56,294 nucleotides of DNA from a virus (taxonomy: Duplodnaviria > Caudoviricetes), in the IMG/VR virus record IMGVR_UViG_3300014903_000004, positions 1-56,294 of that record; one strand, 5' to 3'. The notes under the pieces are model-generated. The model was not told the DNA's origin. It was given only the letters and a program-made list of their open reading frames with translations, and made no database searches. Position 1 is the stretch's first letter. Each line of letters opens with the position of its first letter. Below, in pieces: positions 39,952 to 41,612 of the stretch. A program made the position numbers and the translations under genes.

Positions 39952-40025
39952 TGGAAGAGCGATCTGGAATCGAACCAGAGGCTTCAGAGTCAAAGTCTGA
40001 GGTGTTGCCATTACACCACCGCTCT
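39952..40025 (-). tRNA. tRNA-Gln(TTG)
   Basis: Cloverleaf; anticodon loop CTTTGAC; encoded CCA. Confidence 0.9.
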
Positions 40026-40028
40026 ATA

Positions 40029-40104
40029 TGGTGGATCCTCGGAGAATCGAACTCCGTGCCAAGCAATTATGAGTTGCCTGCTCTGACCGATGAGCTAAGG
40101 ATCC
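40029..40104 (-). tRNA. tRNA-Ile2(CAT, lysidine type); Met not excluded
   Basis: Loop CTCATAA; body resembles bacterial Ile2; the upstream leader has two ATA codons. Confidence 0.8.
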
Positions 40105-40108
40105 AAAA

Positions 40109-40184
40109 TGGTGGCGCTATGTGGATTTGAACCACAGCCTTCCGGGCTTCAACCGGACGCTCTACCAAGCTGAGCTATAACGCC
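40109..40184 (-). tRNA. tRNA-Phe(GAA)
   Basis: Loop TTGAAGC; encoded CCA. Confidence 0.9.
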
Positions 40185-40190
40185 TAATGT

Positions 40191-40264
40191 TGGCATACCG
40201 GCAAGGATTTGAACCTCAATGACCTGTTTTGGAGACAAGCATCTTACCATTAGATGACCGATAT
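40191..40264 (-). tRNA. tRNA-Trp(CCA)
   Basis: Loop CTCCAAA; G73; encoded CCA. Confidence 0.88.
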
Positions 40265-40274
40265 ACATAAAACT

Positions 40275-40350
40275 TGGCTTGCCTGGCATGACTCGAACAT
40301 GCGACATTCTGGTTAACAGCCAGATGTTCTACCAACTGAACTACAGACAA
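40275..40350 (-). tRNA. tRNA-Asn(GTT)
   Basis: Loop CTGTTAA; G73; encoded CCA. Confidence 0.9.
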
Positions 40351-40361
40351 ACACTTAAAAA

Positions 40362-40436
40362 TGGAGCCGGATATCCGATTCGAACGGATGACCTAATCCT
40401 TACAAGGGACTTGCTCTACCACTGAGCTAATCCGGC
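40362..40436 (-). tRNA. tRNA-Thr(TGT)
   Basis: Loop CTTGTAA; encoded CCA. Confidence 0.9.
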
Positions 40437-40439
40437 AAA

Positions 40440-40514
40440 TGGTAACCCGTAGGAGATTCGAACTCCTGTTAACCGAGGGAAAGTCGGCTGTCTTAACCAC
40501 TAGACTAACGGGCC
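40440..40514 (-). tRNA. tRNA-Glu(TTC)
   Basis: Loop CTTTCCC; encoded CCA. Confidence 0.85.
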
Positions 40515-40521
40515 ACACAAT

Positions 40522-40558
40522 AAAAAAGGGCCGCATTTCAATTAAGAATGCGACCCTT
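40522..40558 (-). terminator. Attenuator terminator upstream of tRNA array 1
   Basis: AAGGGTCGCATT...AATGCGGCCCTT-TTTT, ending 7 nt before tRNA-Glu. Confidence 0.85.
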
Positions 40559-40581
40559 GGAAAAACTGTTATGCTAAAATA

Positions 40582-40656
40582 TCAAAACAGCAAGGATCGC
40601 GAATACATCTCAAACGTATTCGTAAAATTCTGCCATTGTATAAATATTTTCTTCAT
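40582..40656 (-). CDS. Attenuator leader peptide 1, MKKIFIQWQNFTNTFEMYSRSLLF
   Basis: 24-codon ORF; codons 4-16 all read by array-1 tRNAs; 3' part is complementary to the terminator 5' arm. Confidence 0.85.
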   Translation of the reverse strand: MKKIFIQWQNFTNTFEMYSRSLLF

Positions 40657-40661
40657 GATTT

Positions 40662-40690
40662 ACTATTACCTCATAAAAATTATTTGTCAA
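40662..40690 (-). promoter_or_regulatory. Putative sigma70 promoter for leader 1
   Basis: TTGACA-N17-AATAGT, 5 nt before the ATG (could give a leaderless mRNA); GAGGT SD also present. Confidence 0.55.
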
Positions 40691-40697
40691 ATAAAAA

Positions 40698-40784
40698 TGG
40701 TGGGAGTTGATAGAATCGAACTATCTGGCACCACCGCACATAATAAGCCAAGTGATTTACAGTCACCCGTGCGGAACAACTCCC
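40698..40784 (-). tRNA. Non-canonical tRNA-Tyr(GTA) lacking a D arm
   Basis: Perfect 7-bp acceptor, T arm, loop CTGTAAA, ACCA end; only 10 nt between acceptor and anticodon stems; 25-nt variable region. Confidence 0.75.
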
Positions 40785-40785
40785 A

Positions 40786-40860
40786 TGGAGAACAGGGTGG
40801 GACTTGAACCCACTTATAAAAGATTTGCAATCAATTGCCTAACCTATCAGCCACCTGTTC
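40786..40860 (-). tRNA. tRNA-Cys(GCA)
   Basis: Loop TTGCAAA; U73; anticodon stem has two U-U mismatches. Confidence 0.8.
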
Positions 40861-40863
40861 AAA

Positions 40864-40950
40864 TGGCGGAAGATGCAGGAATCGAACCTGCGCGTCCTTT
40901 CGAACCCAGTTTAGCAAACTGGTGGAATACCATTCTCCATTCAATCTTCC
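40864..40950 (-). tRNA. tRNA-Ser(GCT)
   Basis: Loop TTGCTAA; long variable arm; G73. Confidence 0.88.
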
Positions 40951-40959
40951 TAATAAAAA

Positions 40960-41046
40960 TGGCGGAGAGGGTGAGAGTCGAACTCACATGCCCTAAGACA
41001 ACGGTTTTCAAGACCGTGGCGTTACCAATTTCGCTGTAACCTCTCC
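40960..41046 (-). tRNA. tRNA-Ser(TGA)
   Basis: Loop CTTGAAA; long variable arm; G73. Confidence 0.88.
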
Positions 41047-41056
41047 GCATAAAACT

Positions 41057-41133
41057 TGGTACTCCCAGAAGGACTCGAACCTTCAAACTCTCGGGTCTAA
41101 ACCGAGCGACTTTGCCAATTTGCCCATGGGAGC
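41057..41133 (-). tRNA. tRNA-Leu(TAG), short variable loop
   Basis: Loop TTTAGAC; A73; encoded CCA. Confidence 0.85.
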
Positions 41134-41144
41134 ACATAAAACAC

Positions 41145-41220
41145 TGGTACTTCGAGCGGGATTCGAACCCGCAACTCACGGATTTTAAGTCCGTTGACTC
41201 TTCCGTTGGCCTATCGAAGC
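41145..41220 (-). tRNA. tRNA-Leu(TAA), short variable loop
   Basis: Loop CTTAAAA; A73; encoded CCA. Confidence 0.85.
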
Positions 41221-41229
41221 ACATTAAAA

Positions 41230-41306
41230 TGGTCTGCGCGGTTGGATTTGAACCAACGGCTACCCGCGTCCAAGGCGGGGTGTCTACCAGACTGACTTAC
41301 ACGCAG
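41230..41306 (-). tRNA. tRNA-Pro(TGG)
   Basis: Loop CTTGGAC; C1-G72, A73. Confidence 0.9.
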
Positions 41307-41316
41307 AAATTAAAAT

Positions 41317-41351
41317 AAAAAAAGCCCTCTATCAACTAAGATGGAGGGCTT
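41317..41351 (-). terminator. Attenuator terminator upstream of tRNA array 2
   Basis: AAGCCCTC...GAGGGCTT-TTTTT, ending 10 nt before tRNA-Pro. Confidence 0.85.
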
Positions 41352-41383
41352 CGTAAAACTATTAATTATGTCAAAGAATCAAA

Positions 41384-41455
41384 TCAACAGCCAGCACCTC
41401 CGCAGTCCAGTGGACTCGGCAGTAACGATAGCGATTGTAGATAACACTTTTTCAT
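41384..41455 (-). CDS. Attenuator leader peptide 2, MKKCYLQSLSLLPSPLDCGGAGC
   Basis: AAGGA SD; 23 codons; 12 of codons 4-16 read by array-2 tRNAs; 3' part pairs with the terminator 5' arm. Confidence 0.85.
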   Translation of the reverse strand: MKKCYLQSLSLLPSPLDCGGAGC

Positions 41456-41612
41456 TTGATCATTCCTTTATTGTTTGCAAGTCCGCGACCACTGTTCAGG
41501 CGCACCGCTTAAAAAAGATATGTTTCCATTCTTTTAGGACAAGGTATTGGAGAGCGAACTCAACCAACCACAATCTTACATATACATCGACTTAAAATAG
41601 TTTCAAGCAAAT

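Follow-up and report, generated by a model that had tools for sequence, protein, structure and literature searches.

Leader-peptide attenuators are known for trp, his, leu, thr, ilvGMEDA, ilvBN, pheA, and pheST, and there are precedents for several inputs (thr, for Thr and Ile; ilv, for Leu, Val, and Ile). In these classical systems, a short open reading frame (ORF) with regulatory codons is led by a Shine-Dalgarno (SD) sequence and is followed by an intrinsic terminator, and the position of the ribosome determines whether a mutually exclusive antiterminator forms. T-box riboswitches also sense the status of tRNAs and choose between a terminator and an antiterminator, but they bind the uncharged tRNA directly, need no ORF, and control aminoacyl-tRNA synthetases and amino-acid genes. 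Here we describe two units that have the parts of a leader-peptide attenuator and lie ahead of tRNA genes in a phage (Caudoviricetes; IMG/VR record IMGVR_UViG_3300014903_000004). We refer to this whole stretch of DNA, which is 56,294 nucleotides long, as the window.

Both units are on the minus strand and have the same order: SD, a leader ORF that begins with MKK, an antiterminator/terminator, and a tRNA array (Table 1). Unlike the classical attenuators, these units would regulate tRNA genes, with the loop closing on the tRNA supply itself. Also, each unit would sense seven phage-encoded tRNA species, with one to three codons for each, at the level of synonymous codons. We put the probability at about 75% that both units are ribosome-mediated attenuators that sense specific charged isoacceptors and exert negative feedback on the phage's own tRNA genes. 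(This estimate draws on sequence comparisons and modeled folds. The anatomy, the codon/anticodon concordance, the alternative folds, the recurrence, and the covariation in other phages were all analyzed in silico.)

We found no description of leader-peptide attenuation of tRNA genes in the open-access literature (supplements and subscription journals were outside the search), and no Rfam family matches the leaders in the window or those of three of the IMG/VR loci described below (L034, L054, and L136). This agrees with a first-pass annotation of the window, made from the sequence alone, which knew of no ribosome-mediated attenuator controlling tRNA genes in a phage. For T-box riboswitches in particular, there is no Rfam match at E ≤ 1 in 39800-41750, and we did not find the specifier loop and T-box. 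Two other Rfam hits were rejected: Phe_leader at 41609-41711, which is outside both leaders (22.9 bits, as compared to a gathering threshold of 55; judged to be noise), and MicX, a small RNA from Vibrio cholerae, at 41317-41463 on the minus strand (26.2 bits versus 75; probably noise driven by the terminator). Leader-peptide attenuation is thus a known kind of mechanism, while the tRNA-gene target, the list of seven inputs written in codons, and the phage setting appear to be undescribed.

Each leader lists the tRNAs of its own array

ARAGORN identifies 13 tRNA genes in this region, all on the minus strand and in two blocks (41306-40786 and 40514-39952). Rfam supports all 13 of them: 12 match RF00005, and Ser(GCT) is most similar to the Sec model. 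Ahead of each block is a leader ORF whose SD lies 8-11 nucleotides before the ATG.

The first-pass annotation described two parallel units in which codons 4-16 of each leader match its own array (12/13 and 13/13) and cover the array fully. The anatomy of leader, terminator, and array bears out the two units, and with strict wobble rules we obtained the same counts. In leader 1, 12 of the 13 control codons are read by array 1, and the sole mismatch is CAA, which is read by the Gln tRNA of array 2. In leader 2, array 2 reads all 13 control codons. Neither leader misses any of the seven anticodons in its own array. By the same rules, only one of the 13 control codons in leader 1, and none in leader 2, is read by the other array. 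Given the codon frequencies in the phage's long ORFs, the binomial P values for the matches to the own array are 3e-9 and 1e-7. And if we rank all 2061 ORFs of 16-60 codons from the six frames of the whole window, each leader is first for its own tRNA set (the runners-up have 11 matches, in a CTG repeat, and 10). The match extends to the choice among synonyms: at the Leu, Ser, Pro, Thr, and Ile control codons, 14/14 are synonyms that the phage's tRNAs can read (P = 6e-4 given synonymous usage). A chance origin of the codon match is excluded for practical purposes.

Two of the tRNAs need comment. The tRNA with a CAT anticodon in array 2 is probably tRNA-Ile2, which reads ATA, and ATA occurs twice among the control codons. 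When we compared it to E. coli, five records matched. The best E-value was for a tRNA-Ile (90.5% identity over 42 nucleotides) and the widest match was to a tRNA-Lys (75%), so this comparison supports the Ile2 identity weakly.

The other is the Tyr-like element at the end of array 1, which corresponds to a single TAT codon in leader 1. An acceptor stem, a T-arm, a 7-nucleotide anticodon loop containing GUA, and an encoded CCA are all present in this element. The D-arm, though, is truncated to about 6 nucleotides, and the bases of the 25-nucleotide variable region can pair with the D region. ARAGORN does not call it, either at default or at ps90 settings, and its top Rfam score (24.9 bits) is to the Sec model. 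The first-pass annotation counted seven tRNAs in each array. That count stands for array 2, but because the Tyr-like element is atypical, array 1 comprises six canonical tRNAs and one non-canonical one.

A switch controlled by the ribosome is predicted in both units

A hairpin and a T-run lie between each leader and its array. (A simple terminator scan missed both hairpins because of its rules for loops and stems.) We masked the footprint of a ribosome and folded the nascent RNA as far as the loop of the terminator. In both units, this predicts a two-tier antiterminator as long as the ribosome's A-site is at codons 1-14 (leader 1) or 1-15 (leader 2), and the antiterminator is lost from about codon 16. 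With the A-site in these ranges, at least 5 nucleotides of the terminator arm are sequestered, and at most codons at least 7 are; from codon 16 on, no more than 4 are. For leader 2, the antiterminator is exceptional: just 1 of 300 mononucleotide shuffles of the intervening RNA reaches it. Both units also fold best as the antiterminator if no ribosome is present, and unlike in trp, a protector (1:2) hairpin is not predicted. An untranslated leader would then read through, so termination would require that translation of the leader be completed. The folds recover what had been noticed in the first pass, namely that the last codons of each leader can pair with the 5' arm of the terminator, and the masked folding gives the proposed direction as well (a stall leads to the antiterminator and read-through, and full translation leads to the terminator).

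We propose that these units would work as follows. The host's RNA polymerase would transcribe the leader, with a ribosome following behind. (No ORF in the window is longer than 662 amino acids, which makes a T7-type RNA polymerase unlikely, so we assume that the host's polymerase is used.) If all of the control codons are decoded quickly, the ribosome would reach the last codons of the leader and the stop codon and would cover the 5' strand of the antiterminator. The terminator would form, and transcription would end within a few bases of reaching the first tRNA. A shortage of any one of the seven cognate tRNAs in charged form would stall the ribosome upstream. The last leader codons and the small spacer hairpin would then sequester the 5' arm of the terminator, and the polymerase would enter the array that supplies those same seven tRNAs. 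The feedback would be negative, as the new tRNA would relieve the stall. If translation were blocked in general, the default would be ON, with the antiterminator forming without a ribosome. In this scheme, we infer that the leaders are translated, that their translation is coupled to transcription, and in which direction and how strongly the units respond.

Analogous units are found in other phages

Bacillus phage G (JN638751.1), which we reached via a match at the level of tRNAs, seems to have a unit of the same kind. Phage G was also the only match to a pattern for a Glu-Thr junction. Its gp86 (MMKCSWFEFDTDFTDVFYCEYTFYSLYTFLDIRKQLQKSRGCLT), which is annotated as a hypothetical protein, would be a leader of 44 codons. 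As in the window, a strong SD is followed by the leader, a hairpin and T-run, and then directly by the tRNA cluster, beginning with tRNA-Cys. At codons 4-31 of gp86, 22/28 match the downstream cluster under strict wobble rules (P = 7.7e-8), and gp86 covers all seven of the tRNAs that ARAGORN calls in the cluster (Cys, Asp, Phe, Tyr, Glu, Thr, and Ser). (A Trp tRNA is annotated in the record too, and gp86 has a TGG.) Unlike in the window, the leader is longer, there is one leader for a cluster that is interrupted by ORFs, and the predicted switch is less clean and more complex than in the other eight units that we folded. Also, gp86 has no sequence homology to the leaders in the window, and a tblastn search with gp86 found phage G only.

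For an unbiased sample of phage tRNA clusters, we searched IMG/VR with a generic pattern of three tandem T-loops, which yielded 119 loci and 142 sub-arrays. A terminator-like hairpin lies directly before the first tRNA in 12 of the 142 sub-arrays, and 11 of these have an ORF that ends near the hairpin. Among these 11, six match their array at P ≤ 1e-2 and four at P ≤ 1e-3. The corresponding means for mismatched arrays are 1.0 and 0.17, and none of 200 permutations gives counts as high as the real ones. The positives are L054, L136, and the homologous leaders of L034, L073, and L109. The first-pass annotation had suggested scanning phage tRNA clusters for upstream ORFs with terminators, and matched ORFs are indeed enriched once the terminator is used as the anchor, but not without it (see below).

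L054 has three units on one contig and, like the window phage, has each of them matched to its own sub-array. MKAILLHIEQPRPLLCNGGTSV lies ahead of Pro, Pro, Glu, Gln, His, and then Leu; VNTAINIAVVIMTGADMALEGSTWYG lies ahead of Ala, Ile, Gly, Met, Asp, Thr, Val, and Met; and MKTLSCSYNSFNSWFFGPSKTIV lies ahead of Tyr, Ser, Ser, Asn, and then Phe. L054 and the family of 58 loci described in the next section resemble the window units in the length of the leaders (19-27 codons), in the distance from the stop codon to the stem (25-42 nucleotides), and in an antiterminator made from the last leader codons and a spacer hairpin. They differ in that the matches are weaker (5-10 control codons) and the phages are unrelated. 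We found no protein matches between the window and the phages of L054 or the L034 family, which makes the shared design analogous or convergent rather than inherited.

Overall, we folded nine units from five lineages with a masked ribosome, and eight of them are predicted to switch in the same way: leaders 1 and 2 of the window, units A, B, and C of L054, and L034, L109, and L136. In these eight units, the stop codon is 25-42 nucleotides from the stem and the antiterminator is lost beyond codon 12-16. This bears on whether the logic might be reversed, with a stall leading to termination and fluent translation to read-through. That would be a feed-forward arrangement in which tRNA is made only when translation is healthy. 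The direction that we propose does come solely from thermodynamic folds. But in 8 of 9 units, what competes for the terminator arm is the last leader codons, and the ribosome covers these only after it has passed the control codons. We consider reversed logic to be very unlikely.

We also noticed two short ORFs that start with MNT at another IMG/VR locus, L116 (minus strand, 3515-6700). MNTITNIHQLSHSRRLSSLLLDSDSDMLKIES precedes Ser, His, His, Arg, and other tRNAs, and MNTLFTQQQQLNLRKLKLD precedes Gln and Gln. These may be another leader family. We did not count them, as our scan found no terminator there.

Leader codons covary with array content in a family of 58 loci

A 23-nucleotide motif from the leaders of L034, L073, and L109 identified 58 IMG/VR loci, on contigs of 2.5-275 kb, and was not found in any of 185,579 bacterial species genomes. 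The arrays in this family always begin with tRNA-Trp, and unlike in the window, they have a clear TTGACA/TATTAT promoter of their own. The array content varies within the family. For 52 of the 58 rows, which contain 37 distinct leader/array pairs, we could compare leaders to arrays (leaving out the invariant Trp codon). A total of 133 leader codons match their own array, as compared to 84.8±6.6 for shuffled arrays (maximum 109; 0/5000 shuffles reach the real value).

The trend is visible for several tRNAs. Leaders have 2.6 ATA codons on average if tRNA-Ile(TAT) is in the array and 0.38 if it is not. Similarly, with and without the matching tRNA, there are 2.0 versus 0.31 Tyr codons, 2.86 versus 0.97 Gln codons, 2.25 versus 0.76 codons for Ser(TGA), and 1.32 versus 0.60 Cys codons. 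Swaps of single tRNAs are mirrored by swaps of single codons: MIKTNTTSIIGWPSRKWGMS goes with an array that has Gly and no Cys, and MFKTNTTSIICWPSRKWGMS with one that has Cys and no Gly. In MFKTNTTNITCWPSRKWGMS, ATT replaces ATA ATA, and the array has no Ile tRNA. We also used the flanks alone (51 rows) to build a tree and examined phylogenetically independent pairs that differ in a tRNA. About 14 of these changed in the same direction, about one (for Pro) in the opposite direction, and about 10 were unchanged, where these totals are the sum over seven traits that share one tree. The covariation in this family is real but partial. The first-pass annotation held that leader codons should covary with array content in related phages; this holds in the analogous family, whose members are not relatives of the window phage.

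These data also address whether the leaders sense amino-acid starvation, or translation capacity in general, instead of particular isoacceptors. Because stalling reports on charged tRNA, a shortage of an amino acid would trigger the switch as well, and being ON without a ribosome would make each unit a gauge of general translation. However, extra tRNA does not relieve an amino-acid shortage. Also, the choice of synonym follows the tRNAs: leaders of the 58-locus family use ATA if there is a tRNA that reads it and ATT if there is none, and in the window the synonym-level match is 14/14. Because the match is at the level of synonyms, sensing of amino acids is disfavored, and we think it is improbable.

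Evidence that weighs against attenuation

Several observations count against the proposal that these units are attenuators. First, minimum free energy folds of the full-length RNA always keep the terminator, so the switch must be kinetic. And the antiterminator of leader 1 is unexceptional: of its 300 shuffles, 104 sequester as many bases of the arm and 24 are as stable.

Second, the Cys, Tyr, Trp, and Glu tRNAs are each represented by one control codon, which may make the sensor weakly sensitive to them.

Third, between the terminator of the upstream gene (41645-41614) and leader 1, we found no clear sigma-70-like site. In unit 2, the sole promoter-like site overlaps the SD and would start the RNA at about the ATG, so the transcript would exclude the SD and be leaderless. 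Polymerase that reads through from unit 1 may also enter unit 2. If the promoter-like site is not used, unit 2 would depend on this read-through, which would put two attenuators in series. As for transcripts, we found no RNA run containing the tRNA locus among the six runs listed. Contigs of four runs that we compared to the locus are mostly unrelated tRNA fragments. A seawater run has a near-identical contig of 191 nucleotides that covers 40448-40635, with three substitutions, an unchanged leader 2 part, and a 3-nucleotide insertion between the T-run of terminator 2 and tRNA-Glu. This contig shows that the same phage lineage is present elsewhere, and it gives no covariation.

Fourth, if the terminator is not used as an anchor, the IMG/VR sub-arrays have no overall enrichment for matched ORFs (4/130 at P ≤ 1e-3, as compared to 2.6 for mismatched arrays). 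Eight other regions that we examined lack such leaders: those of the Vibrio phages F18 g1, K477, and 1.193.O; of Ecwhy_1, PaGz-1, and T5; and of E. coli pheU and pheV. (The tRNA-Phe genes pheU and pheV have no Phe-rich leaders but a promoter only, and the small ORFs in the tRNA region of T5, considered as possible leaders, have no codon match.) T5 and other phages with unregulated tRNA clusters do resemble the window in having tandem arrays that supplement or replace the host's tRNAs. Unlike in the window, plain promoters are annotated ahead of the T5 arrays, and no leader there matches the arrays in its codons (the best P is 0.003).

Fifth, the covariation has limits. Each sign test for a single trait is underpowered, in many leaders of the 58-locus family, Gln, Ser, or Cys codons persist although the array has no matching tRNA, and there is no trend for Pro.

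The simplest alternative to attenuation is that the short ORFs are due to chance or are not translated and that the hairpins are ordinary terminators or insulators, with the terminator of leader 2 ending the transcript of array 1. This would fit with the results for the leader 1 antiterminator and with the position of the unit 2 terminator, which is downstream of array 1. It does not account for the strength of the codon matches given above or for their reciprocal specificity (leader 2 matches array 2 at 13/13 codons and array 1 at 0/13). Nor does it account for the recurrence of the architecture, and the covariation of leader codons with arrays, in unrelated phages. We find this explanation scarcely credible.

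The source phage and its relatives

The window is the whole of its assembly, which is one contig, with a GC content of 35-44%. Matches to PHROG families indicate a tailed phage with a contractile tail. Besides the large terminase and the portal, the proteins named from PHROG are a head morphogenesis protein, the major head protein, a tail sheath, a tape measure, and a tail fibre. Three of the ten proteins from the window that we scanned have no PHROG family. The genes for the terminase and the portal lie on either side of the tRNA region, which is on the minus strand and has the same orientation as the structural genes. The upstream gene is closed by its own intrinsic terminator, so unit 1 opens a new regulatory unit.

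We found no close relatives of this phage in the collections that we searched, judging from sequence similarity. A blastn comparison of the locus to GenBank phages gave only matches to single tRNAs, with coverage of at most 10% (467 records). The closest matches to the terminase are about 50-51% identical. For the capsid, no match is above 29% among the matches listed, and all 209 records are in the under-60% band. The portal has only matches of 24-27% in IMG/VR (4 loci), none in GTDB genomes, and matches of 41% and 40% at best in JGI metagenomes, on contigs that start inside the portal gene (7 loci). The leaders themselves did not lead to relatives either. A degenerate back-translation of leader 2 had 0 matches in IMG/VR, and tblastn with leader 2 found no match. 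The 18-nucleotide 3' ends of the leaders had 8 and 1 matches, all inside coding regions and with no tRNAs nearby, and we attribute these to chance.

Two other features of the window may be mentioned. After array 2 (39868-39952, minus strand), we saw no terminator, and a TTCAAA-17-TATAAT site adjoins a possible ATG of the portal gene at about 39868 on the minus strand, with no evident SD there. And an imperfect tandem repeat of 237 nucleotides, with a period of 9/12/21, lies at 47081-47317 on the minus strand, within the ORF at 47015-47695. The repeat encodes the Ala/Asp/Tyr-rich, low-complexity tail of a 226-amino-acid protein whose gene is directly downstream of the terminase gene.

Table 1. 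Features of the two candidate attenuator units, their surroundings, and analogous units in other phages. Positions are in the window unless another record is named.
Feature	Position	Strand	Details
SD of leader 1, AAGGA	41464..41468	-	8 nucleotides 5' of the ATG
Leader ORF 1	41384..41455	-	MKKCYLQSLSLLPSPLDCGGAGC; 23 codons + stop
Control codons 4-16 of leader 1	41408..41446	-	12/13 read by array 1; 7/7 anticodons represented
Predicted antiterminator 1	41343..41401	-	-18.9 kcal/mol; leader codons 19-24 and spacer hairpin pair with the 5' arm of the terminator
Terminator 1	41313..41352	-	Interrupted 12-base-pair stem, -17.9 kcal/mol, and T-run; 6 nucleotides 5' of tRNA-Pro
Array 1, canonical part	40786..41306	-	Pro(TGG), Leu(TAA), Leu(TAG), Ser(TGA), Ser(GCT), Cys(GCA); from ARAGORN and Rfam
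Array 1, seventh element	40702..40784	-	tRNA-like, with a GUA (Tyr) anticodon loop; from anatomy and Rfam (24.9 bits)
Promoter-like TTGACA-17-AATAGT	40662..40690	-	Overlaps the SD of leader 2
SD of leader 2, GAGGT	40668..40672	-	
Leader ORF 2	40582..40656	-	MKKIFIQWQNFTNTFEMYSRSLLF; 24 codons + stop
Control codons 4-16 of leader 2	40609..40647	-	13/13 read by array 2; 7/7 anticodons represented
Predicted antiterminator 2	40550..40600	-	-19.4 kcal/mol; leader codons 19-25 and spacer hairpin pair with the 5' arm of the terminator
Terminator 2	40520..40558	-	Hairpin, -18.9 kcal/mol, and T-run; 5 nucleotides 5' of tRNA-Glu
Array 2	39952..40514	-	Glu(TTC), Thr(TGT), Asn(GTT), Trp(CCA), Phe(GAA), CAT, Gln(TTG); from ARAGORN and Rfam
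Intrinsic terminator of the upstream gene (ORF 41717-42211)	41614..41645	-	13-base-pair stem and T-rich tail
Large terminase	47750-49240		PHROG match
Portal	38367-39905		PHROG match
Phage G gp86 leader	JN638751.1 58381-58515		Leader through terminator 58381-58583 (= L016 18920-19122)
L054, IMG/VR contig with three units	6100-9100		
Trp-first family			L034, L073, L109, and 54 further IMG/VR loci (within L052-L193)

What the arrays may be for

If these units are isoacceptor-sensing attenuators, then we can ask what shortage they respond to. The anticodons in the arrays are mainly U34 and G34 species, as expected for compensation of codon usage in a phage with 40% GC. Neither array includes tRNA-Lys, which is the target of PrrC and PARIS.

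One explanation keeps the same mechanism but has it evolving to detect host tRNA nucleases (PrrC, PARIS, retron effectors, and VapC-like toxins), with replacement tRNAs being made only under attack. An OR gate with one to three codons for each of seven tRNAs would be suited to a severe loss of one species, and read-through without a ribosome would fit a response to the collapse of translation. The odd Tyr-like tRNA in array 1 would also fit. However, nothing in the window ties the arrays to a defence system, the lack of tRNA-Lys is not what we would expect, and the anticodon set resembles that of ordinary codon-usage compensation. Also, T5, which is a model for tRNA-based counter-defence, lacks such leaders. 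Published accounts do report phage tRNAs that counter retrons and other tRNA-targeting defences. Plain homeostasis of supply and demand accounts for the data equally well, and we consider a nuclease trigger in this phage to be rather unlikely.

The tRNA genes of phages are usually treated as constitutive cargo, and their regulation is essentially unknown. If attenuation of the arrays is confirmed, these would be the first units in which tRNA supply feeds back on itself directly through ribosome-mediated attenuation, and a mechanism familiar from amino-acid operons in textbooks would be extended to tRNA genes. Attenuation of this kind bears on tRNA-targeting defences and on the counter-measures of phages. 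The units would also be compact and programmable multi-input sensors of translation status, which may be of use in synthetic biology. For annotation, a simple rule (a terminator just before an array, together with a codon-matched short ORF) finds more cases. And because Bacillus phage G and its host B. megaterium are a cultured system with an analogous unit, the idea can be tested at once.

Beyond this phage, we lean towards the view that codon-programmed attenuators before tRNA arrays are a widespread and undescribed class of phage regulator. They would be isoacceptor-specific, multi-input tRNA homeostats whose control codons hold the list of inputs, and this list would change with the gain and loss of tRNAs. 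Some phages may use them to bring in replacement tRNAs once the tRNA pool is destroyed by host defences or host shut-off.

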